A stretch of 64,000 nucleotides of DNA, taken from a virus. Its lineage: Duplodnaviria; Caudoviricetes. Below the pieces are notes generated by a model. That model made no database searches, was not told the DNA's origin, and saw only the letters and a list, made by a program, of their open reading frames with translations. Shown here piece after piece: positions 5,365-64,000 of this stretch (its first letter is position 1; each line of letters opens with the position of its first letter). The stretch is taken from the IMG/VR virus record IMGVR_UViG_2639762784_000001, positions 1 through 64,000 of that record; one strand, written 5' to 3'. A program made the translations under genes and the position numbers.

Positions 5365-6656
5365 CGGGACCCCCGCGGCCGGTTCATCACGGCCTGCCGG
5401 GCAAGGGCGCGCTGCTGGTCGGACACCTCCGTCATGGAGACCGCTCGAGGCGGCGGAACGGGCCTCTCAGGGCGCTTCGCCGGCGCCTTCCGTGCGGGCG
5501 GGGCTGCGGAGGGCTCCGGGGGCTTGGCGGTTTGCTCTGCGGCCCGGTCCGCCCGCCTGTCCACGCCCCGCTGCTCACAGGAGACGCACGGCTGCCCGCT
5601 GTCGACGTTCGTCCGCTCGTCACACCGCGGGTCCTGGCACTCCGCATCCCGGCGCAGTATCGCCACCAGGACACCCACCGGCTTCTCGAGCGGGCCGACG
5701 GTGTCCCTCGAGGCGTAGTGCTTGTTCCACTTCGGCAGCAGCCGGAAGTCGACCAGCTGCCCCGCGGTGCGCCCTTGCGGCTGGCCGTCGGCCAGGGCCT
5801 CGAGGACCGCCGCCTTCAGGTTGCCGGGCGGGTTCGCCGGCACCAGGTCGGCGAGCTCCTTGGGGAGCGCCTGGAAGAACGCTTCGACGTGCTGCCGCTG
5901 GGCCTGGGTGAGGGAGGGGGGCTTGCTTTTGCCGGACGCGGCGGAGCCGCTCGAGCTCGAGCGGCTACTACCTGTAGTAGGCCTACGGCCGTCCGGAGAA
6001 GAAGAGGGCTCTGGAGAAGGGGTCTGGTGCGGGCTCTGGATATTGCGCAGCATCCGTGCTGCCAGACGCGCAGCATCCGTGCTGCTCCCCCTGGCAGCAT
6101 CCGTGCTGCCCCCCTCGCCTTCACCCCCTCCCCCGGTGGCCTCGGAGGACTCCTCGCGGGCAGCCTTCACCGCCTTCGGGTTCACGCCCTTCGGCACCCC
6201 ACCACGACGCTCCTTGCCCTGCGCACGCTTCTCCGCACGCCGGGCCTCGATGGCCTGCTTGGCCACGTCCGCGGCCTTCACGCCGGACGGCAGCGGGTCC
6301 TTCCAGTCGCCGTTCCCCTGCCACATCAGGGGCGCATCGTGCAGGTGGTAGACGTTCGCCTCGTTGTTCGCCGGGTTCTCCGGGTCCGGGCGCTCCTCGA
6401 TGGTCACCATGCCGGCGACCGCCATCTCCACCAGGGTCCGGTCGACCGTGGAGACGGACACACCCATCTGCGCGGCCAGCTCTTTCCGGTACGGCTTGCC
6501 GCGTCTGGTGTTCCTGACCTGTGTGTCTGCGTAGGTCACCAGGATTGCGTACAGTGTCCGGGCATTCGTGGAGTATCGCGGGTCACACATCCACACGGCC
6601 GCGACCATGCCGAACGGCAGGTTCCCTCCGCGGCGAACTTCGGGGTCCAAGCTCAC
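5361..6656 (-). CDS. Phage-type replication initiator (N-terminal wHTH, internal iterons)
   Basis: ARTLYAIL..KELAAQMGVSVSTVDRTL..NVYHL; C-terminal CxxxxC..CxxC; iterons mid-gene; adjacent helicase remnant. Confidence 0.75.
   Translation of the reverse strand: MSLDPEVRRGGNLPFGMVAAVWMCDPRYSTNARTLYAILVTYADTQVRNTRRGKPYRKELAAQMGVSVSTVDRTLVEMAVAGMVTIEERPDPENPANNEANVYHLHDAPLMWQGNGDWKDPLPSGVKAADVAKQAIEARRAEKRAQGKERRGGVPKGVNPKAVKAAREESSEATGGGGEGEGGSTDAARGSSTDAARLAARMLRNIQSPHQTPSPEPSSSPDGRRPTTGSSRSSSSGSAASGKSKPPSLTQAQRQHVEAFFQALPKELADLVPANPPGNLKAAVLEALADGQPQGRTAGQLVDFRLLPKWNKHYASRDTVGPLEKPVGVLVAILRRDAECQDPRCDERTNVDSGQPCVSCEQRGVDRRADRAAEQTAKPPEPSAAPPARKAPAKRPERPVPPPRAVSMTEVSDQQRALARQAVMNRPRGSR
6047..6109. 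repeat. Three 16-bp quasi-palindromic iterons GCAGCATCCGTGCTGC
   Basis: Exact copies at 6047, 6070 and 6094. Confidence 0.85.
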
Positions 6657-7363: not shown

Positions 7364-8167
7364 CTACCGCACCCCCTCCTTCCGAGGCCAAGCCGCAGAC
7401 GCATCGCGCACTAGCTCAGACACGAGCTCCACGCGGTCACCCGGGATAACGCGGATCGTCACCTCGAGTGCGTCACCTGTACGCCCTGATCTTCCTACCA
7501 GCGTCATCTCCATGACAGGCATGGATGCGGCGATCTCCAGAAGCTGCGCTTCCTCCTCGGAAGGCATGCGCGTCCTCACGGTCTCGATCCAGGAGAGCGG
7601 GCCGTGGCCGGCCTCCTCCAAGCGGTCGAGATATCCGCCTGGCCCTGTCGACTTCTCGCCGATCCGCGGGGCGTCTTCAACCGCCTGCGGGCTCAACCAT
7701 GTGTCGACGATCTGGAACGGCGGCTCCTCTTCGGGCGACATGATCCGTCGTCGCCGCAGAACTTCACTGCTCGGTTCGACCGAGAACATCTCTGCAACCC
7801 GGTCGGGCGCCGGCTCGTATGACCGCCTGGGTGTGCCGTGCGTCTGCCATGCCTCGTCCGGGTAGCTGGCGGCAGGGAAGACGTACATGCCGGCGGTGCT
7901 ACGGGTGACGACTTGGCTTCTGGTGATGCGGCGCCGCTCGGTGCGGGCCTGCACGACCGTCCCCTTGCGCGGTGCGCTCCGGACGATCCCTTCCGAAGCC
8001 AGCTGGTTCAACGCCGCCCGCACGGTCTGGCGCGCGAGCTTGTAGGTGTCCATCAGCTCGGTGATGGGCGGCAACGTACTTCCGGGCGGGTATTCACCCC
8101 CCTCGATCCGACCCCGCAGGAGCTCCGCGAGCTCCCGGTAGGTCTTTGGACCATCTTCGATCGGCAT
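7364..8167 (-). CDS. GntR-family repressor with UTRA domain (KorA/TraR-like transfer regulator)
   Basis: YRELAELLRGRIEGGEYPPGSTLPPITEL..RQTVRAALNQLASEG..KGTVV; divergent from the tra operon. Confidence 0.9.
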   Translation of the reverse strand: MPIEDGPKTYRELAELLRGRIEGGEYPPGSTLPPITELMDTYKLARQTVRAALNQLASEGIVRSAPRKGTVVQARTERRRITRSQVVTRSTAGMYVFPAASYPDEAWQTHGTPRRSYEPAPDRVAEMFSVEPSSEVLRRRRIMSPEEEPPFQIVDTWLSPQAVEDAPRIGEKSTGPGGYLDRLEEAGHGPLSWIETVRTRMPSEEEAQLLEIAASMPVMEMTLVGRSGRTGDALEVTIRVIPGDRVELVSELVRDASAAWPRKEGVR

Positions 8168-17727: not shown

Positions 17728-18249
17728 ATGCCACCCTCCAAAGACAAGCAAATAGAAGTCGAAACCCGCCGCACCGAGCTGCTCCGCATCCGCCGCAGGC
17801 GCCCCAAGGTGCCCTTCGGCGACCCGGAGATCCTCGCCCTCGGCTACACCTCCGAAGACTCCGCCCGCAAAGACTTCTACCGGATGCTCGAAACCCGCAG
17901 GAAAGCCCTCGACATCGAGGTCAGCGCCTACCGCGAGGAACAGAACGAGATCCTCGACCAGCTCCTCGAAACCCACCTGCCGCCCGCCGTCGCAGGCGAC
18001 ATCAAGTCCAGCGAACTGTGCCTGAAACTCCTCGAGCGGCAGGCCAAGCTGAACGGCTGGGAAGAAGCCCTCAAGGCCGAACTGTCCGGCCCCAACGGCG
18101 GACCGATGCGCGTCAGCGGCGCCACCCTCGCCGAACTCCGCAACCTCATCCGCGCCGCCGGAGACCCCGACGACGATGACGACACCCTCGAGGACCTCGA
18201 GGGCACCGACCCCGACGACGAAGCCGATGACGACGGCGACCACACCTGA
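17728..18249 (+). CDS. Terminase small subunit (putative)
   Basis: HTH-like N-terminus, ERQAKLNG..ELSGPNGGP; directly upstream of TerL. Confidence 0.75.
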   Translation: MPPSKDKQIEVETRRTELLRIRRRRPKVPFGDPEILALGYTSEDSARKDFYRMLETRRKALDIEVSAYREEQNEILDQLLETHLPPAVAGDIKSSELCLKLLERQAKLNGWEEALKAELSGPNGGPMRVSGATLAELRNLIRAAGDPDDDDDTLEDLEGTDPDDEADDDGDHT

Positions 18250-19837
18250 CGTCCTGGACGGAGCCGACGGCAGCGTCGCCCGGCAGGCGGAGGAATACCT
18301 GGCGCTCCGGGCGGAATACCGGCGCCTGAACCGGGCGCAGCGCCGCCGCATCGCCATCAACGCCAGCGACGACGTCCGGCCCGTCCTCGCCCAGATCGAA
18401 CGGGAGATGGCCCTCGAGCGGTCCCCCGGCGCCATGTCCGCCGTCCTCACCGACGGCCGGGAGAAACAGGCCCCGCACCTCGACCTGATCGACCGGGTGT
18501 TTAGGGACATCGCCCGCGGCCGCCCCCGCAAGGTCCTCATCACCATGCCCCCACGGCACGGCAAGAGCCGGCGGGCCGCGCGCTGGGCGCCCCTCTGGTA
18601 CCTATCGCGGCACCCCGACCACCGGGTGATGATCGCCTCCTACAGCGCCGACCTCGCCGACGACCACGGCCGGTGGATCCGCGACGCCATCAACACCTAC
18701 GGGGACCAGATCGGGCTCGCCCTGCACGCCGGATCCAAGGCCGCCAACCGCTTCGACCTCGCCGACCAGGACGGCAACCGCCTCGAGGGCGGCCTGGTCA
18801 CCGCCGGCGTCGGAGGCGGTCTGACCGGCAAGGGCGCGCACCTGGCCATAGTCGACGACCCGATCAAGGACGCCGCCGACGCCGAATCCCCCACCATGCG
18901 CAAACGCCTGTGGGACTGGTGGACCTCGGTCCTCAACACCCGTGTCGAACCCGGCGGCAGCATCCTGGTGATCCAGACCCGCTGGCATGAGCAAGACCTT
19001 GCCGGGAAGATCCTCGAAGGCGAGGACGCCGACGACTGGATCCGCCTGGACCTGCCCGCCATCTGCGACAGCAAAGACGACGCCCTGGGCCGGGAGATCG
19101 GCCGCCCCCTGTGGCCCGTCCGCTACGGCGTCAAAGCCCTCGAGAAGATCCGCCGCGCCGTCGGGGAGCGCGTCTGGTGGTCCCTCTACATGCAAAAGCC
19201 GCGCCCGCTCGAGGGCGGCGTGTGGAAGTGGCCGTGGATCACCGACAACCGCATCACCCCCATGGCGTTCCGCGGCGTCGACCTCACCCGCATCGTCGTG
19301 GCCGTCGACCAGGCCGGAGGCGAAGGAGACAACCACGACGAAGTCGGCGTCATCGGCGCCGGCCGCACCCACGACGGCCACCTGTACGTCCTCGCCGACC
19401 GCTCCGCGAACATGGGTGCCGACACCTGGGGCCACGAAGCGTGCCGCCTCGCCATCGAACTCAAGGCGGACGCGTTCGTGGTGGAGGACAACTTCGGCGG
19501 CGACCAGTCCGCGCAGATCCTCCGCCAGGCCTGGGCCGACCTGGAACGCGCCGGGGAGGCCAAGGGCCTGCTGACGCCGCGGATCATCCCGGTGCACGCC
19601 AAGCAGGGTAAGAAGCTCCGCGCCGAACCGATCGCCCAGCTCGCATCCCAAGGGATCGTGCACCACGTCGGGGAGTTCCCTCGCCTAGAGGGGCAACTGG
19701 TCACCTGGATTCCGGGCATGAACTCCCCGGACCGGATGGACGCCTACGTCCACGCCTGCACCGAGCTCGCCGACCCCATGCGGGAAGGCCTGGGCGCCCA
19801 GCACTACAGCGATCAGCGGTTGCGTGGACGACGGTGA
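18227..19837 (+). CDS. terL: Terminase large subunit
   Basis: ITMPPRHGKS Walker A, IVDDPIKD, QTRWHEQDLAG, VAVD..D nuclease motif, SPDRMDA. Confidence 0.95.
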   Translation: MTTATTPDVLDGADGSVARQAEEYLALRAEYRRLNRAQRRRIAINASDDVRPVLAQIEREMALERSPGAMSAVLTDGREKQAPHLDLIDRVFRDIARGRPRKVLITMPPRHGKSRRAARWAPLWYLSRHPDHRVMIASYSADLADDHGRWIRDAINTYGDQIGLALHAGSKAANRFDLADQDGNRLEGGLVTAGVGGGLTGKGAHLAIVDDPIKDAADAESPTMRKRLWDWWTSVLNTRVEPGGSILVIQTRWHEQDLAGKILEGEDADDWIRLDLPAICDSKDDALGREIGRPLWPVRYGVKALEKIRRAVGERVWWSLYMQKPRPLEGGVWKWPWITDNRITPMAFRGVDLTRIVVAVDQAGGEGDNHDEVGVIGAGRTHDGHLYVLADRSANMGADTWGHEACRLAIELKADAFVVEDNFGGDQSAQILRQAWADLERAGEAKGLLTPRIIPVHAKQGKKLRAEPIAQLASQGIVHHVGEFPRLEGQLVTWIPGMNSPDRMDAYVHACTELADPMREGLGAQHYSDQRLRGRR

Positions 19838-29282: not shown

Positions 29283-32200
29283 GTGTCCGAGTGGAATCTG
29301 TCGGTACGCCTCACCGGGCAGGGCTCCGACCTCGCACGCACCCTCCGCAGCCTTTCCCACGACGCCAACAACGCCTCCCGCAACGTCCAAGCCCTCCGCC
29401 GGAACCTCCAACAGCTCCGCCGCGAGACGCGAAACCCCATCCGTGTCCGCCTCGACGTGGACGCCGCACACCTCCGCAGTGCCGGCGCAGGGCAGGGCCT
29501 GGCCGTGAACCTGCGCCTCGGCAACGCCATGCAGCTACGGCGCGAGGTGGAAGATGCGGTGCGTTGGGCGACGTGGGGGCACCGCATCGAAATCCCCATC
29601 GGCCTCGCCGACCCGATGCAGCTGCGCCGGGACGTCACGGCCGCCGTGCGGTGGGCGCAGGACAACCAGCGGATCCGCCTGCGGGTCGACGCGGACACCA
29701 GCGCTCTGCGCGGCCTGGGCGGCACCCTCGGCGGCGGCTCGGGCTCCAGCAGCGGCGGCCTCGACATCGGTCTCGCCGGACTGCTACCCATCGCCACCGC
29801 CGCGATCCCTCTGATTGCCGGGCTGTCCACCAGCCTTGGGCCGCTCGCCGCCGGGTTCACGGCCAGCGGTACAGCAGCGACTGCGTTCGGGATCGCCCTT
29901 GCCGGACAGATCGGTCCGCTCACCGAGGTCGCGGACGCGCAGACGAAGTACGAGGAAGCAGTCCGGGAACACGGCCGGTCATCCGGGGAGGCGACGGAAG
30001 CACAGATCAAATACCAGCAGATCCTCGCCGAACTGCCGCCGGAAGCGCAGCAGGCCGCCATGGCGATATCGCGGCTGAAGACGAACTTCGGCGACTGGTC
30101 GGATGAGATGTCCGGCTTCACCATGGCCCCGCTCACCAAGGGCATCACCGTCCTCGACCAACTCATCCCGCGCCTGACTCCGCATGTGAAGTCGGCGTCC
30201 ACCCAGCTGGACCGGCTGGTCACCGTCGCCGGCGGCGCCATCAACACGCCCGGCTTCGACGCGATGACCGCGAAGTTCGCCGACTTCACAGACCGGCAGC
30301 TGGACGAGATGACCGACGGCGTCATCCACTTCCTGCGTGTCCTGTCCGAGGGCGGTGCCTTCCAGGACGGGCCGATCGCCGAGTTCATGGCCTACGCCCG
30401 CGCGAACGGGCCTGCCGCCCGCGAAGCGCTGTCCGCTATCTCTGCGGCTGTAGTGACGCTGCTGCGGGCCGCGGCGGAGGCCGGGCCGACCATGCTCACC
30501 CTGGTCACCGCGTTCGCGAACCTGGTGGCGGCGCTACCCCCCGAACTGGTCGGCATCATCCTCCAGGTCGCCACCGCCCTGAAACTCCTCCAGCTCACGG
30601 GGGCGGGCATGGCCGTGCTCGCCGCCGGGCTGGGCCGGGTCCGTACCGCGGTGGCCGCCCTCGGCACCACGGCCGCCACCGCAGGCGGCGGCATCGCCGG
30701 ACTGAGGGCCGCGTTCCTGTCCCTCGGGCTCGCTGCGCGGGCATCCATCGTCATTGCCGGGATCGCCGCCGTCGTCGTCATCTTCAAGGAACTCTCGGAG
30801 ATCGGGAAGCAGGCCCCGCCAGACGTCGACAAACTCACCACCTCCCTCGGAAAGCTCGGGCAGACCGGCAAGGTCGCCGGCGAGGCATCGAGGGCGTTCG
30901 GCAAGGACCTGGGCGGCCTCGCCGACAGCCTGCGCACCCTCTCCAGGCCCTCCAATCTGGACAAGACGCAACAGTTCCTGACCAGCCTGGTCGGCATGGA
31001 CTCCACCCCGGTCAAGGAAGCCAAGGAGGACCTGGACGCCGTCGACAAGTCCCTCTCCAACCTGGTGAAGGCCGGCAAGGGCGACATCGCCGCGGCAGCG
31101 TTCGAGCGGATCGCGGCCGCGATGCGCAAGCAGGGCATGTCCGGCAAGGAGCTCCGGGAGCAGCTGGACGACTACAAGTCCGCCCTCGCCGACCAGGCCT
31201 TCGAAGCCGAGCTGGCCGCCCAGTCGATGGGCATGTTCGGACAGGCGGCGCAGGAGACGTCGGCGAAGCTCGCAGACCAGAAGGCCAGCGCGGACGGTCT
31301 CCGCCAGTCGATCATTGCCCTGAACGACGTCAACCGGGCCGCCGGCTCCGCGATGTCCGCGTTCGAGCAGTCCATCGACGACACCACTAAAGCGATCAAG
31401 GAGCATGCCGGGGCGCTGAAGATGCGCGACGGGGAACTCGACCTCGGCTCCCAGAAGGCCCGCGATGCCGAAGCCGTCCTCTCCGACCTCGCCGCGAACA
31501 CGGATGCCGCCGCGGCCGCTGCCCGGGAGCAGGGCAAGAGTTGGGAGTACGTCAGCGGCATCCAGGAGCGCGGCCGGGCTGCGTTCATCGACGCCGCCGA
31601 CGCCATGGGCCTGTCCAAGGCGCAGGCGGAGGCGCTCGCCGACTCCTACCTGGCGATCCCTGACGAGAAGTCCACGCGGATCGACATGCGCACCGAGGAC
31701 GCCATCGCCGGCCTGGACGCGGTCATCGCCGCGATCGAGGAAACCCCGGACAAGAAGTCCGTCACGGTGGACGCCCTCACCACCCAAGCCGTCACCATGC
31801 TGGAAAGCCTCGGCTTCAAGGTGACCGAGCTGAAGGACGGCCGTTTCAAGGTCATCGCCGAGACCGGGACCGCCGGCAGCGCCCTGGATGAGCTGAAGGG
31901 TCGACGCGACGGACTTCAGGACAAGACGATCACGATCGACGCGGCGACCGTGGGCGCGATCACGGACCTGGAGAAGATCAAGGCGAAGGTCGCCTCCACC
32001 AACGGCAAGACCATCACGATGAAGGCGCCGACCGCTGAAGCGCGCCGCCAGCTCGAGCTTCTCGGCTTCAAGATCCGGGACACCAAGGGGAAGAACGTCA
32101 CCATCACCGTGCCGACCGGCTCGCAGCGCGCCAACGTCAGCGCCCTCGCCTCCGCCATCGCTGGGCTGCGGAACAAGAGCGTCACGGTCACCACCACCTT

Positions 32201-33638
32201 CTACGAGCGGCACATCGTCTCCAGCACCGGTGAGGCCCGCTCCCGCACCAAACTGCGACCCGGGTCGTACGCCGACGGTGCGGTGGTCGACTACTACGCC
32301 GATGGTGGCTTCAGCCCCCGAGTCCGAGCGTTCGCGAACGGCGCGGAGAACCACATCGCGCAGATCGCCCGCCCCGGAGCGTGGCGGATGTGGGCCGAAC
32401 CGGAGACCGGCGGCGAGGCGTACATCCCGCTCGCCCTGTCCAAGCGGGAACGCTCCCGCGCCATCGCCGAGGAGACCATCCGCCGCCTCGGCGGCGACCC
32501 GGACACGGTCCAGTGGAACGCCAACGGATCCATCACCGACTGGCGCTACGACCCCGCCTCCGGGTCCCTGTACTCGCCGTCCGACGCCGGGTCGGCGGGC
32601 CGGAAGACGAAGAACGTGAAGGGCAAGGAAGTCTCCTACTTCGACCTTGGGGCGGTGGAGCGGAAGCTGGTGTCCGCGGGGCGCGCCACGGCCGCATGGA
32701 ACCGCAACCTGGAGAAAGTCGCCGAACTCGCCGGCGGGGACGTCGCCCAGGCCCTCGCGTCGATGGGTAAGGAAGGCGAGGGCCTGGCCAGGAAGATGGC
32801 CACCGGGTCGAAGAAGTACATCGCGCAGATGAGCATCGCGCTGCGCGACCTTCAGAAGACGGCGCGGGCCACCCTCGGCGACTACAGCGTCCAGTTGAAC
32901 CACGCCATGGGGAACCAGGACCTGTTCGTGAAGAACCTGTCCAAGCTGTCCGCGCAGGGGTACGGCGACCTTGCCGGGCAGCTCGCCGCGCAGAACGACC
33001 AGGCGGCCCGTGAATTGGCCGCGGCGGCGGTGAGCGACAAGAAGAAGGCAGGCAAGGCCAACACTGCGGCGAAGCGCGCAAACAACGCCCTGACCGGCGA
33101 GCAGGTGCGGGACCTGGTGCAGATCATCGCCGCGATCAGGAAGCCAACCACCGGCATCCACGACGTGGCAGCCGCTACCGGTCTGGGTGAGGACGTCATC
33201 ATCGAGATCGCGACCAAGGCTCAGGGGCAGATCCAGACCGCCCTCGGCTCCCGGTCGGGCCGTTTCATTGCCGACCTGCGGAAGGCGAACGCGCACCAGG
33301 CGTATGCGGACGGCGGTATCCGCGCCGGCATGTACGCCACCCGCGACGGGATCATCCGCTTCGCGGAACCGGAGACCGGCGGGGAGGCGTACCTGCCGCT
33401 GTCCCCGTCCAAGCGCCGCACCGCGCTGCCCGTCCTCCACGACGTCGCCACCCGCTTCGGGCTGGGCCTGACCGACGCGCGTGCCACCCAGCCGGTCGTC
33501 ATCGTCCACGAGTCCAGCCCCACCACCGTCCAGGTCACCGCCGTGCGTACCGGGGCGTCCGCATCCGACATCGGAGCCCAGGTCGGCCGCAGTGTCCGCC
33601 GCGCGCGTAGGGGAGGGGTGGCCGCCCGTGCCGCTTGA
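29283..33638 (+). CDS. Tape measure protein
   Basis: 1451 aa, Ala-rich helical; AEPETGGEAYIPL motif occurs twice. Confidence 0.9.
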   Translation: MSEWNLSVRLTGQGSDLARTLRSLSHDANNASRNVQALRRNLQQLRRETRNPIRVRLDVDAAHLRSAGAGQGLAVNLRLGNAMQLRREVEDAVRWATWGHRIEIPIGLADPMQLRRDVTAAVRWAQDNQRIRLRVDADTSALRGLGGTLGGGSGSSSGGLDIGLAGLLPIATAAIPLIAGLSTSLGPLAAGFTASGTAATAFGIALAGQIGPLTEVADAQTKYEEAVREHGRSSGEATEAQIKYQQILAELPPEAQQAAMAISRLKTNFGDWSDEMSGFTMAPLTKGITVLDQLIPRLTPHVKSASTQLDRLVTVAGGAINTPGFDAMTAKFADFTDRQLDEMTDGVIHFLRVLSEGGAFQDGPIAEFMAYARANGPAAREALSAISAAVVTLLRAAAEAGPTMLTLVTAFANLVAALPPELVGIILQVATALKLLQLTGAGMAVLAAGLGRVRTAVAALGTTAATAGGGIAGLRAAFLSLGLAARASIVIAGIAAVVVIFKELSEIGKQAPPDVDKLTTSLGKLGQTGKVAGEASRAFGKDLGGLADSLRTLSRPSNLDKTQQFLTSLVGMDSTPVKEAKEDLDAVDKSLSNLVKAGKGDIAAAAFERIAAAMRKQGMSGKELREQLDDYKSALADQAFEAELAAQSMGMFGQAAQETSAKLADQKASADGLRQSIIALNDVNRAAGSAMSAFEQSIDDTTKAIKEHAGALKMRDGELDLGSQKARDAEAVLSDLAANTDAAAAAAREQGKSWEYVSGIQERGRAAFIDAADAMGLSKAQAEALADSYLAIPDEKSTRIDMRTEDAIAGLDAVIAAIEETPDKKSVTVDALTTQAVTMLESLGFKVTELKDGRFKVIAETGTAGSALDELKGRRDGLQDKTITIDAATVGAITDLEKIKAKVASTNGKTITMKAPTAEARRQLELLGFKIRDTKGKNVTITVPTGSQRANVSALASAIAGLRNKSVTVTTTFYERHIVSSTGEARSRTKLRPGSYADGAVVDYYADGGFSPRVRAFANGAENHIAQIARPGAWRMWAEPETGGEAYIPLALSKRERSRAIAEETIRRLGGDPDTVQWNANGSITDWRYDPASGSLYSPSDAGSAGRKTKNVKGKEVSYFDLGAVERKLVSAGRATAAWNRNLEKVAELAGGDVAQALASMGKEGEGLARKMATGSKKYIAQMSIALRDLQKTARATLGDYSVQLNHAMGNQDLFVKNLSKLSAQGYGDLAGQLAAQNDQAARELAAAAVSDKKKAGKANTAAKRANNALTGEQVRDLVQIIAAIRKPTTGIHDVAAATGLGEDVIIEIATKAQGQIQTALGSRSGRFIADLRKANAHQAYADGGIRAGMYATRDGIIRFAEPETGGEAYLPLSPSKRRTALPVLHDVATRFGLGLTDARATQPVVIVHESSPTTVQVTAVRTGASASDIGAQVGRSVRRARRGGVAARAA

Positions 33639-38057: not shown

Positions 38058-38422
38058 CCACAGAGGCCGAACCCACGCCCGAGTCCGAGCCCAACCCCAT
38101 CGAGCCCACCCCGCTGCCTGAGGAGCCGCCCCCTCCACCGCCGGACGAGGTGCCGCCGCCGCCTGCCCCGGAGCCGCCGCCCGCTCCCGACATGCCCACC
38201 ACGCCGATCACCTTTGAGCCGGCCACCTACTACGAGGTCGACTCCGTCTGCCTGACTGCGGACAGGGGTGATGGCGAGCCGTGCCGCAATCTAAACGTGA
38301 CCGCGACGGATCCGATGGTGTACTCCAACGCTGGGAAGCCGATCATTTTCTGCGGCGTGTGCTCCAAGTACCGGACCATCCTGTCCGCGACCAAGCTGGA
38401 CCCGCAGCCCGAGGTGTCGTAA
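38054..38422 (+). CDS. Pro-rich small protein with Cys motifs
   Basis: Coupled start; C..C..CGVC. Confidence 0.6.
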   Translation: MTTEAEPTPESEPNPIEPTPLPEEPPPPPPDEVPPPPAPEPPPAPDMPTTPITFEPATYYEVDSVCLTADRGDGEPCRNLNVTATDPMVYSNAGKPIIFCGVCSKYRTILSATKLDPQPEVS

Positions 38423-38594
38423 CCCGCTGTCGGCCCGGAGCCGGGCGGGGGCAACGTCTGCCCCGCCCGGCCCGTAGCCTGACCACAGGGCGACCCTCCG
38501 CCCCCTCTGCTCCAGCCCCCGAGGGACGGCCGCACGCAGTGGCCCGCCACAGCATCATCAGCTCTGGGCGCGGGGAGATCCAGGAGCACGGGCA

Positions 38595-38978
38595 ATGCCC
38601 GATCCGATCACACAACAGGACGAGCAGACGGCTGCCCGGAAGAAGACCGCTCCCGCCCCGGAGCCCTCCCCGGCCCCCAGCCCCGACACCACCGTCGTCG
38701 ACACGGCACGGTACGAGCCGTACCCCGGCGCCGCGTTCTTCCACGGCGGCCGACACTCACCCCTCTTCGCGGCGATGGCCCGACGCCTCGATGCCGAAGG
38801 CTGCACCGACGGCCGCCACCTCGGACCGGACTGGACGACCGCCCACCGCGACGCGTTCGCCACCTGGCAGCGCACCCTGCGCCCCAAGGAGGGCGGCGAC
38901 GTGTCCGGCATCCCCGACCAGGTCGCCTGGGACCGACTCCACGTCCCGCGCATCACACCCCTTCCCAAGGAGACCTGA
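38595..38978 (+). CDS. Stand-alone peptidoglycan-binding domain protein
   Basis: YEPYPGAAFF..GPDWT..WQR..GIP..WDRLHVP. Confidence 0.75.
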   Translation: MPDPITQQDEQTAARKKTAPAPEPSPAPSPDTTVVDTARYEPYPGAAFFHGGRHSPLFAAMARRLDAEGCTDGRHLGPDWTTAHRDAFATWQRTLRPKEGGDVSGIPDQVAWDRLHVPRITPLPKET

Positions 38979-38979
38979 G

Positions 38980-39957
38980 ATGGCCACCCCGCTGTCCGCC
39001 ACAAAGCTTCTCGCCGTACTCAAGGCCGAGGGCTGCAAGGTTGTCGAGTACCGGTCTTGGCGTACCCACAACCGCAACTCCAAGGGCGCCTGGGGTCCCG
39101 TCAACGGTGTCATGATCCACCACACCGTTTCATCAGGCGAAGACTCATCCGTCGCGCTCTGCTACAACGGGCACACCCTCCTGCCCGGACCGCTCTGCCA
39201 CACCGTCGGGGGCAAGTCCGGAAAGCTGTACATGGTCTCCGCAGGCCGCGCCAACCACGCCGGCTCCGGCGACGGCGACGTACTGCGCGCCGTCATCAAC
39301 GAAACCGCACTGCCCGCAGACAACCAGGCCAACACCGACGGGAACTCCCGCTTCTACGGCCTGGAGATCGTCAACCTCGGCAACGGCAAGGACACCTACC
39401 CCGCCACCCAGTACGACGCCGCAGTCCGGTGGGCCGCCGCGATCTGCCGCGCCCACGGCTGGGGCGCCGCATCGGTCATCGGCCATAAGGAGTGGCAGCC
39501 CGGAAAGATCGACCCCCACGGGCCTGTCGAGGGCCGCGGCCCCTTCAACATGACCGCCTTCCGCCGCGACGTCGCCGAACGGCTGAAGAACGCGGCCTCC
39601 TGGAGCTCCGGCTCCACCCCGAGCACGCCCGACACCGCGGAGGACCCCATGGCAGGGATGACCAAGCAGGACATCTACGAAGCGGTGTGGAGGACGGACG
39701 CCATCACCGCGCCCGCCACGGCCACAGACCGCGCCACGAACAAGACATGGGAGCCGCAGTCTTACCTCAAGGACATCGGCAACCGGGTCAGGTCGATGGA
39801 CAGCCGTCTCGCCGCCCAGTCCGCCGCGATCACCGAGCTGACGAGGACCGTCACCCAACTCGCCACCAACAGCGAGTCCCTCGACGCCGACGCGCTCGTC
39901 CACCGCATCGAGCAGGCCATCGAAGCCATCGACATCCGCCTCGAAGTCACCAGCTGA
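38980..39957 (+). CDS. Endolysin, N-acetylmuramoyl-L-alanine amidase
   Basis: VMIHHT, RANHAG, YGLEI, VIGHKEW..KIDP (Amidase_2 motifs). Confidence 0.9.
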   Translation: MATPLSATKLLAVLKAEGCKVVEYRSWRTHNRNSKGAWGPVNGVMIHHTVSSGEDSSVALCYNGHTLLPGPLCHTVGGKSGKLYMVSAGRANHAGSGDGDVLRAVINETALPADNQANTDGNSRFYGLEIVNLGNGKDTYPATQYDAAVRWAAAICRAHGWGAASVIGHKEWQPGKIDPHGPVEGRGPFNMTAFRRDVAERLKNAASWSSGSTPSTPDTAEDPMAGMTKQDIYEAVWRTDAITAPATATDRATNKTWEPQSYLKDIGNRVRSMDSRLAAQSAAITELTRTVTQLATNSESLDADALVHRIEQAIEAIDIRLEVTS

Positions 39958-47408: not shown

Positions 47409-47654
47409 GTGGAGTCCGTAGAGATCGAACTGTTCGGAGGGCCAGCGCACGGTATGCATGTGGTCATCCCCGGCGAACCCATGAATCCGCCCGACACCTA
47501 CGAGTTGCAGCAGGCTCCGGCCCACCAGGAGGCAGAGCCCCGCCGTCTCGTCTACCGGAAGGACGCAGAGCCCCGCCGTCTCGTCTACCGGAAGGACTTC
47601 GACACTCTCGGTAGGACCCTGTGGGTGTACCGGTACGAGGAGCAGGTGCTGTGA
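47409..47654 (+). CDS. Small protein with an 11-aa internal duplication
   Basis: LFGGPAHG..YRY; GGGGAG RBS; overlaps the recombinase start. Confidence 0.6.
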   Translation: MESVEIELFGGPAHGMHVVIPGEPMNPPDTYELQQAPAHQEAEPRRLVYRKDAEPRRLVYRKDFDTLGRTLWVYRYEEQVL

Positions 47655-52874: not shown

Positions 52875-53840
52875 ATGGCTCAGGCCATCCAGGCCGCCGC
52901 GAACGCGGGCGGTCCGACTTCTCACACCCGTTTTCAGTTCGCTCCGGCCACCAAGGAGCAGTCCAAGGCCCGCGTCGCCCTGGACGGGCCCAGCGGTTCG
53001 GGCAAGACCTACTCGGCGCTGACGATCGCCACGGCGCTCGGCTCTCGCATCGCTGTCATCGACACGGAGCGCGGTTCGGCCCGCAAGTACGCCAACGAGT
53101 TCGCCTTCGACGTCCTGGAGCTTGCGTACTTCTCCCCGGACGACCTGGTGGAGGCCCTGGCGGCTGCCGGGTCGGCCGGGTACGACGTCGTCATCGTCGA
53201 TTCCCTGTCGCACTTCTGGTCCGGTTCCGGCGGCATGCTGGAGCAGGTCGACCACGCCGCGAAGAAGGGCTTCGGCGGGAACAGCTTCGGCGGGTGGAAG
53301 GAAGCCCGGCCGATGGAGCGTCGCATGGTCGATGCGCTGGTCTCGTACCCGGGGCACGTCATCGTGACGATGCGTGCGAAGACGGACTACGTACTGGAGA
53401 CCAATGACCGTGGCCGGCAGGTGCCGCGGAAGGTTGGCATGAAGCCGGAGCAGCGTGAAGGGCTGGAGTACGAGTTCGACATCGTCGGCTCGATGGACTG
53501 GGAGAACACTCTCGTGGTCACCAAGTCCCGGGCACGGACGTTGACGGGTGCGGTGGTGCGGCAGCCGGGTATCGAGTTCGGTCAGCAGATCAAGGCGTGG
53601 CTGGAGGACGGTACGGCGGTGCAGCCGGTGCAGGACCTGATCACGGAGGCGAACCGGGAGAACGCCACGTTCGAGGACCTGGGTGCACTGATGCGGAAGG
53701 TTCGGGCGCGCCGGCTGGAGGGTGCGCCGATGCTGACGCCGGAGGGTTCTGCGACGACGCTGGGTGCCCATATCCAGGAGCGCGGCAAGCAGATGCGGAA
53801 GGCCGCGCAGGGCGGCGACACGGAGAGGGGAGCCGCCTGA
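52875..53840 (+). CDS. AAA_24 / Sak4-like ATPase
   Basis: GPSGSGKT, IDTERGS, IVDSLSH.W, TMRAK, EYEFD. Confidence 0.85.
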   Translation: MAQAIQAAANAGGPTSHTRFQFAPATKEQSKARVALDGPSGSGKTYSALTIATALGSRIAVIDTERGSARKYANEFAFDVLELAYFSPDDLVEALAAAGSAGYDVVIVDSLSHFWSGSGGMLEQVDHAAKKGFGGNSFGGWKEARPMERRMVDALVSYPGHVIVTMRAKTDYVLETNDRGRQVPRKVGMKPEQREGLEYEFDIVGSMDWENTLVVTKSRARTLTGAVVRQPGIEFGQQIKAWLEDGTAVQPVQDLITEANRENATFEDLGALMRKVRARRLEGAPMLTPEGSATTLGAHIQERGKQMRKAAQGGDTERGAA

Positions 53841-55546
53841 TGGGGTACCGCAACGACAACGACGCGTTGTCTGTTATGGATTGGTTCTGCGGGGCAGGAG
53901 GGTCCTCCCAGGGCGTTCACTCCGTGCCCGGCGTCCGCGTGGAGCGGGCCGCGAACCATTGGAAGCTCGCCATTGAGTCGCACGCCGCGAACTTCCCCAC
54001 CACCAGCCACTACCAGGGCGACATCCGTAAGGCCCCGGTGTGGGACTGGCCGGTGACCGATATCTTCTGGGCCAGCCCAGAATGTACTAACTGGAGCGTC
54101 GCCAAGGGTAAGAAGCGGGACTTCGCCGACGCCATGCAGGGCAGCCTCCTCGATCTCCTCGCCTCGACCGACGAGGACGACGAGCCGTCTGCCGAGGAGG
54201 AGTCCCGGGCGCTGATGGAGGAGGTGCCGCTGTACCTACGCGGTGTGCAGGAGCGGGGCGGCTTGGTGAAGGCCGGCATCGTCGAGAACGTCACCGACGT
54301 CCGCGCCTGGGACCAGTGGGACCGGTGGATCGGGGAGATCCACAAGCTGGGCTACCGCACGCGGATCATCGCCCTGAACTCGATGCATGCGAACCCTCGG
54401 TCGGTGCACGCGGCGCCGCAGTCCCGGGACCGGCTGTACGTCGGCTACTGGCACGAGAGCCTGGGCCGCACGCCGGACTGGGACAAGTGGCTGAGGCCGC
54501 GCGCCTGGTGCTCCGGCTGCGACGCGTTCGTGCAGGCGATGCAGGTGTTCAAGGACCCGAAGCGGGACATGGGCCGCTACCGCAGCCAGTACGTGTACCG
54601 GTGTCCGAACACCCGCTGCCGCAACCAGGTCGTTGAGCCGGAGGCCCTGCCCGCCGCCGCGGCGATCGACTGGTCGATTCCCGGGCAGCGGATCGGTGAC
54701 CGGGCCAAGCCGCTCGCCGACAAGACCCTCGCGCGCATCGAGGCCGGACTGAAGAAGTTCGCTCGCCCCGTGCCGATGATGGTCCCGGCCGGCGGCACCT
54801 GGCGGGACGCCGCGGTCTCCGTCGGCGAGCCGATGCCCGCGCGTACCACCCGCGAGAACGACGCGCTGATGGTGCCGCCGCTGATGGTCCCCGTCGAGGG
54901 CCGCGTGGGTAAGAGTGCGGCGTCCGCGCACGGCCCACTGCGGGCGATGACGACCCGCAACGAAACCGGGCTGGCTTGGCTGCCGTTCATTGCCGAGTTG
55001 CGGGGCGGCGGCTCCGTTGCCCGGACCGTGGCGGAGTCCCTCGCCACTGTGACCGCGTCCGGGAACCACCACGGGCTGGTCACGCCGCCGATGCCCGCCA
55101 TGGTGATGCGGAACAACGGCTCCAAGGGCGACGGCGGCGAGCACTGCACCTCGCCGGTCGAGCCGTTCCGGACGATGACGACGGCCGGACACCAGTCGCT
55201 GCTCACGTGGGAGCACATGCTCGTCCCGTACTACGGCAATGGTGCCCCGCGGTCGGTGAATGAGCCGATCGGTGCGCTGACAACCCGGGACCGGTACGCC
55301 CTGGTGCGCGGTGAGGTCGACATCGACGACGTGATGTTCCGGATGCTCGAGCCGCACGAGATCGGCCGCGCGATGAGCTTCGCCGACGAGTACGTGGTCC
55401 TCGGGAACAAGCGGGAGAAGGTCCGCCAGTACGGCAATGCCGTTACCCCGAACGCTGCCGAGGTTCTGGTGTGCGCGCTGGTGGAGGCCGTCACCGGCGA
55501 GGACATCGACCGGTACGCAGAGCCGGAGTTCGCGGCCGCCGCCTGA
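53840..55546 (+). CDS. DNA (cytosine-5)-methyltransferase
   Basis: DWFCGAGG, WASPECT, ENV, QSRDR, QYGNAV. Confidence 0.9.
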   Translation: MGYRNDNDALSVMDWFCGAGGSSQGVHSVPGVRVERAANHWKLAIESHAANFPTTSHYQGDIRKAPVWDWPVTDIFWASPECTNWSVAKGKKRDFADAMQGSLLDLLASTDEDDEPSAEEESRALMEEVPLYLRGVQERGGLVKAGIVENVTDVRAWDQWDRWIGEIHKLGYRTRIIALNSMHANPRSVHAAPQSRDRLYVGYWHESLGRTPDWDKWLRPRAWCSGCDAFVQAMQVFKDPKRDMGRYRSQYVYRCPNTRCRNQVVEPEALPAAAAIDWSIPGQRIGDRAKPLADKTLARIEAGLKKFARPVPMMVPAGGTWRDAAVSVGEPMPARTTRENDALMVPPLMVPVEGRVGKSAASAHGPLRAMTTRNETGLAWLPFIAELRGGGSVARTVAESLATVTASGNHHGLVTPPMPAMVMRNNGSKGDGGEHCTSPVEPFRTMTTAGHQSLLTWEHMLVPYYGNGAPRSVNEPIGALTTRDRYALVRGEVDIDDVMFRMLEPHEIGRAMSFADEYVVLGNKREKVRQYGNAVTPNAAEVLVCALVEAVTGEDIDRYAEPEFAAAA

Positions 55547-60116: not shown

Positions 60117-60449
60117 ATGCCCAACACTCCTGAGACCGTGGACTTCCTGACGGTGCCCCTCGCCGACGGCGGCACCTGGACCCGCCTGGACCGGCTCACC
60201 GACGGCCGCATCATGTGCTGCATCTGCTTCGAGTTCTGCACTCGCGACCAGCTGAACCAGGTCGACGGCGGCGTGGAAGACGTCTGCAAGCCCTGCGTCC
60301 GCAAGGAGGCAGCCGTCGCTGAACTCCCCAGCAGCGCCTGCCGCATAACCCTCGACCCCGGATGGGGTGGTGCCATCCAGGTTTGCACCCGCGTCAAGGG
60401 CCACGACGGCTACCACCGCGACGACCGGACGGCCGGAGGTGCCCAGTGA
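60117..60449 (+). CDS. Cys-rich hypothetical protein
   Basis: CCICF..DVCKPC..CT..GHDGYH. Confidence 0.6.
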   Translation: MPNTPETVDFLTVPLADGGTWTRLDRLTDGRIMCCICFEFCTRDQLNQVDGGVEDVCKPCVRKEAAVAELPSSACRITLDPGWGGAIQVCTRVKGHDGYHRDDRTAGGAQ

Positions 60450-61231
60450 CTGAGCAGGCATCCGGCGCCGACCTCGCCCGGCAGGCCCTCGCCGCCGCCC
60501 GCGCCACCGCCAAGACCGCCCCCGCCCCGGGCCCCAGGAAGACCCGCCGCACCCGGCCGGCCCGCGGAGAAGGACGTGACCCCCAAGGCCTCGGCGCCAT
60601 CCTCGGACGCCTCACCGCCGAACAAGGCTGGGACACCGGACTCGACGGCGGCAACCTCATCGACCAGTGGCCCACCATCGCCCCCACCGAACTCGCCACC
60701 ACCGTGCAGCCCGTCGCCTACGACCCCGACCGCGGCATCCTCGAACTCCGACCGTCGTCCCCCGCCTACGCCACCCAGGTCCGCCTGTTCCAGCACCAGC
60801 TCGCCAAACACCTCAACACCGCGCTGGGCCGGCCCGCCGTCCGCACCATCCGCGTCCTCGCTCCCGGCCACGCCACGGCGGCCGCCGACACCGGCCCGGA
60901 GCCCGAGCCGGCCAAGCCCACGGACACCCCGGTGAAGACGAGGGAGACCGCGCACCCCGGGTACCGGGCTGCCCTCGAAGCCGCCCTCACCCACCGGCCC
61001 GAACGCCAGCACACCAACCCCTACGTCGGCGAAGCAGCCGCCCGCCAGGAAGCCGCCATGCGCGCCCACCGGCAAGCCGAAGACGAACACCGCGACGCCG
61101 TGTGGGAACTGGACCGGCTCACCGTCCCGGAGGTCGACCGCAGCGAAGCCGCCCGCCGCGCCGCCCTCGCCTACAAACGGCAGGCCCCCGCCGACGGCGG
61201 CACGCCCCGCCGACTGTTCGGCGCAGCCTGA
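60446..61231 (+). CDS. DciA/DUF721 family protein
   Basis: GADLARQALAAAR..RDPQGLG..EQGW..WPTI..SSPAYATQVR..IRVLAP. Confidence 0.8.
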   Translation: MTEQASGADLARQALAAARATAKTAPAPGPRKTRRTRPARGEGRDPQGLGAILGRLTAEQGWDTGLDGGNLIDQWPTIAPTELATTVQPVAYDPDRGILELRPSSPAYATQVRLFQHQLAKHLNTALGRPAVRTIRVLAPGHATAAADTGPEPEPAKPTDTPVKTRETAHPGYRAALEAALTHRPERQHTNPYVGEAAARQEAAMRAHRQAEDEHRDAVWELDRLTVPEVDRSEAARRAALAYKRQAPADGGTPRRLFGAA

Positions 61232-61304
61232 CCGGCAGGGGCAACGCGGCGGCGGTTCCTGCGGCACCGTGTACGCGATCAGCACTGCACGAACGGAGCC
61301 GCCC

Positions 61305-61463
61305 ATGGTCCTCACCCGCACCCCCGCCTGGCACACCCGCGAAGCTGCGGACGAACGGGCATGGCTCGACCACTGGGCCCAACTCCACCTCGCCCCCCTC
61401 CTCGAGCCCCAGCCCGTCCCGGCCGCCGCGCCGGCCCTCACCCTCGCCGGGAGCCCTCGATGA
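61305..61463 (+). CDS. Small hypothetical protein
   Basis: GGAG RBS; downstream of a promoter-like motif. Confidence 0.4.
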   Translation: MVLTRTPAWHTREAADERAWLDHWAQLHLAPLLEPQPVPAAAPALTLAGSPR

Positions 61464-61714
61464 CCACCATCGTCTACCCACGCCAAAACCCCCGCCCCCG
61501 AGCCGCCATCTCCAGCACAGCCCTGGACGCACCGGAGGCCGCCCGGGAAGTCGCCCGCACGCTCCGCCGACCCATCGCCGACTTGGGGCTCCCCGCCTGG
61601 CCGCGGCCCCGGCTCGTCCACGACCACGCCGCACTGTTCCGTGAGCCGACGTACGCCGACGGCCAGCCCTACGCGACCGACGACGACGAGGACGACCAAC
61701 CGGCGGCGCCCTGA
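61460..61714 (+). CDS. Small hypothetical protein
   Basis: ATGA-coupled. Confidence 0.5.
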   Translation: MTTIVYPRQNPRPRAAISSTALDAPEAAREVARTLRRPIADLGLPAWPRPRLVHDHAALFREPTYADGQPYATDDDEDDQPAAP

Positions 61715-61725
61715 CCGCCCACCGA

Positions 61726-61803
61726 CGTATACCGCGGTATACGCGCCCACCTGGTTGGCAAACCTCCTCTGCGGTCCCCGAGGCGTATACCGCGGTATAC
61801 GCC
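61726..61803. repeat. Two palindromes CGTATACCGCGGTATACG (candidate parS)
   Basis: 61726-61743 and 61782-61803, upstream of parA. Confidence 0.8.
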
Positions 61804-61915
61804 CGCCACGGTGAACCCACCGCCCAATCCCAGACCCCACCCCGCCCATCTGAGAAGCTATGCCCCGTCCGAGTACCGAGAGCCCTTCTCGGGAAGCACA
61901 CGGAAACGGAGCACC

Positions 61916-62578
61916 ATGCCCTCCTCAGTCCTCGTCGTGTCCACCGACCCCCAAGGGTCAACCATCTGGTGGGCCGACCGCGTCGGCGACAACCTCCCCT
62001 TCGACTTCGCCGCCGCCCACGAAGACCCCGACAGCCTCGCCGCCCTGAAGGGCTTGGGCGCGCAGATCCACGTCATCGCCAACCAGAAGGGCGGCGTCGG
62101 TAAAACCACCACCGCCGTCAACCTCGCCGCCGTCACCCACGACGTCCTCGGCAACAGCGACGACCGGCAGCACATCTTCATCGACACCCCCGGCAGCCTC
62201 GAGAACGAACACATCCTCGCCGCCGCCCTCGACGTCGCCGACGACGTCCTCGTGCCCATGCCGCCCGAGCCGCTCGCCTTCGACCCGACCGCCCGCACCA
62301 TCGAACGCGTCATCGTCCCCCGCGGTCTCCCGTACACGGTCGTCATCAATGCCTGGGACCCGCGCGACGGCAAGGCGGACCTCGAGGACACCGTCGCCTA
62401 CATCGACGCCATGGGCTGGCCCCGCGCGAAGACCGTCATCCGCCGCTACAAAATCCACACCCGTGCCGCGTCCGAAGGCAAGGTCGTCACCCAGTACGCC
62501 GACAACGGCACCACCCTGCGGGCCCGCGAGGACTACTTCCGCCTGGCCCTGGAGCGCGGCTACGGAGGACGCCGCTGA
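61916..62578 (+). CDS. parA: ParA family ATPase with rearranged motif order
   Basis: VLVVSTDPQGS, then NQKGGVGKTT, then IFIDTPG, ADDVLVP. Confidence 0.88.
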   Translation: MPSSVLVVSTDPQGSTIWWADRVGDNLPFDFAAAHEDPDSLAALKGLGAQIHVIANQKGGVGKTTTAVNLAAVTHDVLGNSDDRQHIFIDTPGSLENEHILAAALDVADDVLVPMPPEPLAFDPTARTIERVIVPRGLPYTVVINAWDPRDGKADLEDTVAYIDAMGWPRAKTVIRRYKIHTRAASEGKVVTQYADNGTTLRAREDYFRLALERGYGGRR

Positions 62579-63726
62579 TGGCCGGCAAGCGCGTCTCCCT
62601 CGCCTCCCTCGCCGAAGCCAAAGTCGAAGCCGTTCCCGGGGCCAGCCGGCCCGACCTCATCCACGTCCCCCCGAACACGGTCGCCCCCACCCCCCTCAAC
62701 CCGCGGCGCGCCTTCGACGAAACCGAACTGATAGAGCTCGGGGAAGACATGCGGGCCGGGCAGCTCCAGCCGTGCGTCGCCGTCAACAAGGCCGCCTACC
62801 TGAAGCTGTACCCGGAGCACGCCGACCGACTGCCCGACGGCTGCCGGTACATCATGGCCGCCGGGGAACGCAGGTGGCGGGCCGCCGCCAAGGTCGGCCT
62901 GGACAGCCTCGATGTGATGCTGCGGCACGACCTCACCGAATCCCGGGTCCGGTTCCTCGCCGCGGTGCTCTCGGAGAACGTGCAGCGAGCCAACTTCAAC
63001 CCCATCGAGGAAGCCGACGGGCTGCGCGCCATGCTCGACCTCCACGACGGGAACCAGGCGGCCGCCGCCAGGGCGATGGGCAAGTCGAAGGCGTGGTTCA
63101 ACCAGCGGATCGGCCTGCTGCGCCTGTCCGATCAGATGGTGGAGCTCGTCTTCGCGGGGAAGCTCACCGCGTTCAGGGACATGCGCCGGTACGCGGCCCT
63201 ACCCCCCGGCGAGCAGTACACCGCGTGGAAGTCGGACCAGGAGCAGCCCCGCCCGCCGAAGCCGCCCCAGCCCGAACCGCCCGCGGCTGCTCCTGCCCGT
63301 GATGCCGGGCAGCCGGAGGCGTATACCGCGGTATACGCCGGGCCCGCAGAACCCGCGCCTGCCCCGGACGTCCCGGCGGTGTCCGGTTCGTCCTCGGGCC
63401 TCCGGAAGGAGCTGTCGCCGGAGCCGGCCACCGCACCGGTGGAACCGCCGGCAGGCGGACTTGAGCGCGCCGAACCGGCGCCTGGTGCTCCTGAGGCGCT
63501 GCGGCCCGAGCCTGAGCTGATCCCCGACCCGCGGCCCGAGCCATCGGCGGAGGGCAGGCGGTTCCCCTACGACAGTCCAGGGGAGGCAGTCATGCTGCTG
63601 GCGCATCGGATGGGCGACGACGCGTTCTTCGAAACGGTGCGGCTCCTTGTCATGAAGGCCGCCGACCGTAATGGGGGCCGTCTGCACGGCATCCTGCGTG
63701 ACACGGTGAAGGAACGCTCTTTGTAG
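62578..63726 (+). CDS. parB: ParB/Spo0J family partition protein
   Basis: NPRRAF, GQLQP, AGERRWRAA, ENVQR..NPIEEA, HTH. Confidence 0.9.
   Translation: MAGKRVSLASLAEAKVEAVPGASRPDLIHVPPNTVAPTPLNPRRAFDETELIELGEDMRAGQLQPCVAVNKAAYLKLYPEHADRLPDGCRYIMAAGERRWRAAAKVGLDSLDVMLRHDLTESRVRFLAAVLSENVQRANFNPIEEADGLRAMLDLHDGNQAAAARAMGKSKAWFNQRIGLLRLSDQMVELVFAGKLTAFRDMRRYAALPPGEQYTAWKSDQEQPRPPKPPQPEPPAAAPARDAGQPEAYTAVYAGPAEPAPAPDVPAVSGSSSGLRKELSPEPATAPVEPPAGGLERAEPAPGAPEALRPEPELIPDPRPEPSAEGRRFPYDSPGEAVMLLAHRMGDDAFFETVRLLVMKAADRNGGRLHGILRDTVKERSL
63318..63339. repeat. Third parS-like palindrome inside parB
   Basis: GGCGTATACCGCGGTATACGCC. Confidence 0.8.
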
Positions 63727-64000
63727 AGCACCTGCTCCGGTATTCGGCCCTCACCATGATGGTGGGGGCCGACGTCGTCTTCCGGTCAACTTCCATCCCA
63801 TACAGCCCAGTTGCCGGGGTTTCTGCATCACCCGCTCGAGTGACACCAGCCCGCGACTCTTTCCTCGCGCACCAGTTCGTGGATTGGGTGGAGACTGCTG
63901 CCAAGTCTGGGGCTGCCGGCGGCAGGCCGGGAACGGCGGAGGTGGATCGCAGCCCACCCGCCGGATCCCGGCCCCCACACCTGGCACCTCTCCTGGCCGC

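Follow-up and report, generated by a model that had tools for sequence, protein, structure and literature searches.

The window analysed here is a stretch of 64 kb that forms the start of an 85,284-bp contig (69.9% GC), and it carries a parA gene, encoding the 220-residue protein P0001, followed by parB, which encodes P0002 (Table 1). The parA reading frame is free of internal stops, its stop codon overlaps the parB start codon as TGATG, and P0002 scores 40.7 bits with the Pfam domain ParB_N and 34 bits with HTH_ParB; an intact parA coupled to an intact parB, as given in the preliminary description of the locus, is thus what we find. A GTG at position 61811, which would extend the product to 255 residues, was rejected as alternative start because the homologues begin at the ATG position and the extension carries no remnant resembling Walker A. 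A scan of 61200-64000 for promoters and terminators gave none. Two RNA-library contigs, from different studies and organisms, start at 61899/61900, i.e. 16 nt 5' of the parA ATG, at a place where a DNA contig continues through, and this weakly hints at a transcript start at 61899-61900.

Table 1. Features of the par locus, phage genes in the window, and contigs of relatives that cover the parA segments (positions in the window).
Feature	Position	Strand	Basis or remark
parA CDS, predicted permuted deviant-Walker-A ATPase (P0001)	61916..62578	+	ORF, phmmer, Pfam, homologue alignment, AlphaFold2
Segment B, residues 1-48: A' strand VLVVSTDPQ, then helix-strand-helix; D11 at 61946-61948	61916..62059	+	matches 3cwq_A 30-54
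Segment A, residues 49-82: strand 1, deviant Walker A KGGVGKT, helix 1	62060..62161	+	Pfam, invariant residues
Segment A lysines: signature K58 at 62087-62089, P-loop K63 at 62102-62104	within 62060..62161	+	
Segment C, residues 83-220: Walker B HIFIDTPG and remaining ParA core; D90 at 62183-62185	62162..62575	+	matches 3cwq_A 68-182
Ribosome-binding-site-like AAACGGAG, ATG 4 nt downstream	61904..61911	+	read from sequence
parB CDS (P0002, 382 aa): ParB_N (GERRWR), HTH_ParB, Pro-rich linker, C-terminal domain	62578..63726	+	ORF, Pfam, PHROG ParB-like families
parS-like palindrome, copy 1	61727..61742	.	exact match; position kept in pSAM1
parS-like palindrome, copy 2	61785..61800	.	exact match; position kept in pSAM1
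parS-like palindrome, copy 3, in parB linker coding region (encodes YTAVY)	63321..63336	.	exact match
Large terminase	18176-19837		
Tape-measure protein	29283-33638		
Endolysin	38281-39957		
RNA-library contig X8 record 18	61900-62683		0 gaps
RNA-library contig X17 record 9	61899-62700		1 gap
Metagenome contig X3 record 13	62013-62209		

The parS-like element is a 16-bp palindrome, GTATACCGCGGTATAC, present in three copies where shuffled sequences lead one to expect 0.01 (none of 100 shuffles reached three). Two copies lie upstream of parA, where parS-like sites had been proposed from the outset, and a third is inside parB. The locus thereby has the parts of a type I ParABS system: an adjoining ParB with a ParB_N domain (GERRxR) and a helix-turn-helix (HTH), and repeated palindromes near the operon.

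Phage and plasmid functions occupy 15092-43799 and 53597-55546 of the window and include, besides those listed in Table 1, scaffold and tail proteins, an FtsK/SpoIIIE-like protein and a DNA methyltransferase. The par region matches plasmids of 86-94 kb and phage ZL12, and this, together with the phage genes, indicates that the contig is a plasmid-prophage of the pZL12 type, and an active partition system fits such a lifestyle. The ORF at 60362-61231, just 5' of the par locus, resembles genes annotated as DUF721/DciA in pSAM1 and in an S. pseudovenezuelae plasmid, and may be a helicase-loader-like gene beside the partition genes. Positions 1-136, at the contig end, are made up of imperfect tandem repeats (periods 24, 36 and 60 nt; units such as GGCGGCAnACnGGG), which may have caused the assembly to break there. 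Two further tandem arrays, at 6046-6118 (23 nt, 3.1 copies) and 47527-47597 (33 nt, 2.2 copies, 97% match), are possible iteron-like replicon repeats.

P0001 begins with MPSSVLVVSTDPQGSTIWW, reads IHVIANQKGGVGKTTTAVNLAA at residues 50-72 and HIFIDTPGS at residues 86-94. The chain order of its segments is B-A-C (A', Walker A, Walker B), compared with A-B-C in canonical ParA/MinD proteins, i.e. the linear order Walker A, A', Walker B that characterises this group is not kept. The individual motifs are all present: a deviant Walker A with signature lysine (KGGVGKT, residues 58-64; consensus KGGxxGK[ST]), the A' Asp (D11 in STDPQ) and a hydrophobic Walker B strand with D90. In ParA/MinD proteins the A' Asp (Soj D44 type) stands on the strand beside the P-loop, and the stretch of P0001 with D11 aligns to 3cwq_A 30-54. 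Within the A' motif hhhhDxD the first Asp is replaced by Ser (S9), as the preliminary description had pointed out, while the second is D11, which together with K58, K63, T64 and D90 is invariant in 74/74 aligned homologues; the DPQ motif and the W/LPF residues are also invariant in this alignment.

Alignment to canonical proteins is out of order. With phmmer against PDB sequences, query residues 52-73 match 3cwq_A 3-24, residues 4-30 match 30-54 and residues 84-200 match 68-182, and BLASTP against the canonical ParA P0358 gave two out-of-order HSPs (query 3-218 to 50-231 and query 50-151 to 3-88). These alignments and the segment HMMs described below bear out the order first read from the sequence, with A' before Walker A and then IFIDTPG as Walker B. 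That the N-terminal segment resembles A' by chance was considered and rejected: the HMMs, at a domain E-value ≤ 1e-3, place segment B after Walker A in the canonical relatives (159 A-B-C proteins), and the BLAST HSPs are out of order. Profile searches are affected by the order as well. P0001 scores 40.7 bits with Pfam AAA_31 (cut-off 27) and 34 bits with CbiA (cut-off 25.4), profile positions 2-25 falling on residues 51-73, and this Walker A stretch is all that Pfam covers. The NCBIfam equivalog NF041546 (ParA_partition) matches in two stretches, segment C corresponding to its positions 74-192, with a total of 72.4 bits, i.e. below the cut-off of 180; the canonical-order protein P0124 also stays under that cut-off (89.9 bits). 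Such curated profiles assume the canonical motif order, which explains why the B-A-C family falls below the NCBIfam cut-off and why the Pfam match is limited to Walker A. A profile of the B-A-C family itself matches P0001 in a single stretch, residues 1-219.

The first homologue search retrieved at least 120 clusters with 65-98% identity and lengths of approximately 220 amino acids, and the B-A-C order is the same throughout alignments of 14 and then 74 of these clusters. With one HMM per segment (A, B, C) we classified 356 collected ParA-like proteins, drawn from the best 120 and best 150 matches of each search: 159 are A-B-C, 132 are B-A-C (the window ParA and 131 others), seven are B-C-A, one is a C-A fragment whose full-length cluster mate, P0360, is B-C-A, and the remaining 57 are fragments or have a segment B too weak to call. 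Among 72,556 plasmid records searched with tblastn, 37 have a full-length match with the same span as the query and 63-98% identity, many of these records being complete; all carriers belong to Streptomyces, Kitasatospora or Embleya, with pSAM1 (97.7% identity) and pSLE1 (67%) among the plasmids. The ParA of phage ZL12/plasmid-phage pZL12 (66% identity) is also B-A-C, with one HSP over residues 1-218, and of 200 further genomes sampled from the genus, three carry a B-A-C ParA (E ≤ 1e-60). Every full-length close homologue examined thus shares the order, which answers the search for homologues keeping the swapped order that had been proposed as a check.

That the order is an artefact of assembly or annotation, or that parA is a freshly scrambled pseudogene private to this genome, might be suspected on the grounds that the draft genome consists of 89 contigs and that the best public run contains 32% of the sampled words of the exact stretch (cover gaps in contigs are in themselves not evidence). 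Against this, the same order is found in the 131 other proteins, the 37 plasmid records and phage ZL12, and contigs of relatives run through both segment junctions without rearrangement in two RNA libraries and two metagenomes, X8 record 18 and X17 record 9 crossing the junctions and X3 record 13 spanning the part given in Table 1. Moreover, the ORF is intact and its dN/dS is 0.075 relative to pSAM1; values are 0.236 relative to S. pseudovenezuelae and 0.5-0.6 for distant members of the family. This pattern points to purifying selection on parA, and the higher values for distant pairs probably reflect saturated, biased or constrained synonymous sites at approximately 70% GC. Since the B-A-C order is conserved in many independent sources we regard an artefact as already refuted and its residual probability as practically nil. 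The two outcomes named beforehand as fatal to a natural permutation, canonical order in the close homologues and an assembly error, did not materialise.

An AlphaFold2 model of P0001, built on the 74-sequence alignment, is confident (mean pLDDT 92.5, pTM 0.90), also for residues 1-48 (pLDDT 84-91). According to DSSP its elements follow each other as E5-9, H15-26, E30-33, H38-47, E50-54, H63-78 and E86-90 onward. Foldseek returned ParF, other ParA proteins, Soj, MipZ and MinD as best PDB matches (4e03_A, TM 0.67/0.72). The best structural matches are ParF of plasmid TP228 (4dzz, 4e07, 5u1g) and the Synechocystis ParA 3cwq, with Z 18.4 and 16.3, respectively. In the sequential superposition (VIA-align) model residues 49-220 fit ParF 4dzz_A 1-206 with an rmsd of 2.3 Å over 162 aligned residues; residues 1-48 stay unaligned, and so do approximately 44 residues of ParF, which is about the size of segment B. 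The structure prediction and superposition that had been suggested as a check therefore yield a confident ParF-like model with a sequential fit confined to residues 49-220. In this model segment B probably fills the place of the canonical A' segment. The three parallel neighbouring strands share the sheet edge at which they begin, so that segment A can be connected through another loop without changing its place in the fold.

The failure of sequential aligners to place residues 1-48 could also be taken to mean that the permuted chain completes the fold differently, with segment B packing in trans (a segment-swapped dimer) or in a new position and with an active site that is in trans or altered. 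We consider this unlikely in view of the monomer pTM and the pLDDT of residues 1-48, the strand-helix-strand-helix pattern that segment B shares with the canonical segment, and the invariant DPQ and W/LPF residues. In addition, a homologous segment B occupies ParF 28-70 in the model of a related protein, P0123, in which the order is B-C-A: the B and C segments of this AlphaFold2 model (pLDDT 84.2, pTM 0.85, from eight sequences only) are colinear with ParF 28-206 (Z 17.6, 174 aligned residues), which identifies the homologous B segment with the ParF 28-70 element. The proposal of a natural segment permutation of the ParA fold is accordingly upheld by the shared order, the signs of purifying selection and the confident ParF-like model.

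The relatives of P0001 include all three orders. A profile search of 1.84 billion representatives gave 2,788 proteins at E ≤ 1e-3, and among the best 150 of these only P0079, which stands for the family of the window, and P0138 are colinear over the full length; the majority match in three out-of-order stretches, i.e. they are canonical A-B-C proteins, and Walker A is C-terminal in P0123, P0125, P0140, P0197 and P0161. The canonical actinobacterial plasmid ParAs of Micromonospora sp. NBC_00821 (P0358), Nocardia farcinica pNF1 and S. albus DSM 40763 have an adjoining ParB, belong to the same clade as P0001 and are 45-56% identical to it in all three segments; they differ in having an N-terminal Walker A followed by a variable linker of 10-25 amino acids and then the A' strand. 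The third order, B-C-A, is seen in P0123, P0125, P0140, P0197, P0272, P0275, P0283 and P0360, which are metagenomic. In these a linker of approximately 10 amino acids leads to the strand-P-loop-helix unit, which is the C-terminal element, the chain ending a few residues past helix 1. Identities among these proteins range from 30 to 65%, and they derive from several metagenomic sources, on contigs of up to 64 kb. A scan of genome contigs with the B-C-A alignment resulted mostly in generic Walker A matches, the sole relevant one, the Kitasatospora locus L010, being B-A-C. The B-C-A form is a circular permutant of ParA that falls in the same clade as the B-A-C form and is rarer.

In a tree of the C segment (approximately 135 columns), every B-A-C and B-C-A row groups with 25 canonical ones in a single clade (SH-aLRT 98) that has little inner resolution. 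Several independent origins of B-A-C were considered, as quick trees scatter the B-A-C groups. The AU test does not reject a single B-A-C clade (p 0.74), the constrained tree being better by 20.5 lnL. One clade of all non-canonical forms is not rejected either (p 0.317), so that one event or several may underlie these forms. To our knowledge all other proteins of the ParA, MinD and NifH types are A-first, which argues that the canonical order is ancestral, and the PDB matches of P0001 and its model are likewise A-first. The junction in front of Walker B reads ...L-x-x-Y-Q-H-I-F-I-D-T-P-G in canonical and B-C-A proteins, and behind segment A the pattern Y-x-H-[IV]-F is retained in several B-A-C proteins (QYQHIFIDTPG in Kitasatospora L010). 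From this preserved context it seems that a copy of segment A was inserted in the loop before the Walker B strand. We conjecture that B-A-C would have arisen by such an insertion followed by loss of the original N-terminal copy. Intermediates with two P-loops (A-B-A-C or A-B-C-A) were not found among the 356 classified proteins. Taking the three topologies together, we lean, if only slightly, towards the view that, in a single clade of plasmid and phage ParAs from actinobacteria, the strand-P-loop-helix unit acts as a cassette that can change place, and that at least two rearrangements would have produced the three topologies with function kept.

The core of the parS-like palindrome, TACCGCGGTA, is present both upstream of parA and inside parB in 6/6 B-A-C loci and in 0/83 other loci. 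The copy inside parB recurs in the pSAM1, pZL12, pSLE1, S. pseudovenezuelae and Kitasatospora loci, and the flanks of the core differ by locus (GTATAC..., TTTAC... and GAATTTAC...). This suggests, from sequence comparison, that the parS-like site co-varies with its ParB. The positions within the individual loci are 7555-7570 (L003), 5436-5445 (L004), 2891-2900 (L008), 2915-2924 (L009) and, in L010, 3936-3945 and 4026-4035; the copy always falls in the part of parB coding for the Pro-rich linker, where it encodes YTAVY or FTAVN.

The residues needed for nucleotide binding, dimerisation and hydrolysis in this protein family are known from Soj, MinD and ParF. By analogy, P0001 would bind ATP through K63 and T64, as canonical ParA does, and form the sandwich dimer through the signature lysine K58; hydrolysis would proceed via D11 and D90 and be stimulated by the basic N-terminus of ParB, which would load at the three TACCGCGGTA-core palindromes. 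ATPase activity of P0001 is predicted on these grounds. Instead of a partition motor, P0001 might be a conserved ParA-like adaptor with altered catalysis, such as a regulator of parAB expression that binds ATP, a possibility raised by the scores below the cut-offs of the curated ParA model and by the Ser in place of the first A' Asp. We judge this very improbable: the residues for binding, dimerisation and hydrolysis are those invariant in 74/74 sequences, canonical relatives from the clade of P0001 also lack the first Asp (VVGCDPQ in P0124, VASTDPQ in P0358), and the operon is complete with a CTPase-type ParB and parS-like sites. Our preferred interpretation, to which we assign a probability of approximately 0.85, is that parA encodes the working partition ATPase of a Streptomyces plasmid-prophage of the pZL12/pSAM1 type and that its chain permutes the small ParF/Soj-like ParA fold in a non-cyclic way. 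The locus as a whole is most likely an ordinary working ParABS system.

Compared with known systems, P0001 is closest in build to ParF and 3cwq, which are small ParA ATPases of approximately 205 amino acids without an N-terminal DNA-binding domain; it is of the same size class and shares their deviant Walker A, A' Asp and Walker B residues, with 24-32% identity over the aligned part. It differs in chain order (B-A-C versus A-B-C), and sequential alignment is limited to residues 49-220. The partner differs too: ParF works with the ribbon-helix-helix protein ParG, whereas an HTH ParB is encoded beside P0001. The ParAs of pZL12 (pZL12.17c; pZL12/phage ZL12, GQ919031), pSAM1 and pSLE1 share with the window the B-A-C order, a parA-parB operon, the TACCGCGGTA-core palindromes and an 86-94 kb plasmid-prophage background, and the window parA is a member of this family with no difference in kind. 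The records of these three elements label the proteins simply as "ParA" or "ParA family protein".

Among P-loop proteins the nearest precedent is provided by the circularly permuted GTPases YjeQ/RsgA, YlqF/RbgA and YqeH, where the motif order is changed and the fold kept. Their permutation is circular and they belong to the TRAFAC class, while that of P0001 is non-cyclic, with one internal unit relocated, in the ParA/MinD group of the SIMIBI class; the B-C-A relatives are the circular counterpart. In the portion of the literature that was accessible, our full-text search found no description of a permuted ParA. Non-cyclic permutations have been described as a general phenomenon. According to the available text of a study on SCP1 (PMC13245405), Streptomyces plasmid ParAs keep their ATP-binding residues; in this text neither "permut" nor "rearrang" occurs and the order is not mentioned.

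In summary, our comparison of sequences and models indicates a real and conserved topological permutation of ParA that is probably fully functional. The ParA/MinD fold is a textbook fold whose motif order has been treated as fixed, and the B-A-C family departs from it. Non-cyclic permutations between clear homologues are rare, and in this case it is the nucleotide-binding loop that has moved. In terms of plasmid biology the system is probably an ordinary one. Annotators and phylogeneticists who align ParAs of Streptomyces plasmids need to take the segments into account. The canonical and circularly permuted siblings are close enough in sequence for direct comparison and hence constitute a natural test set for protein evolution and folding. 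Finally, if the P-loop unit is indeed a relocatable cassette, the catalytic P-loop would be rewirable without loss of function, and topologies that are 45-55% identical could be used to test how connectivity relates to folding, dimerisation and the timing of the ATPase.
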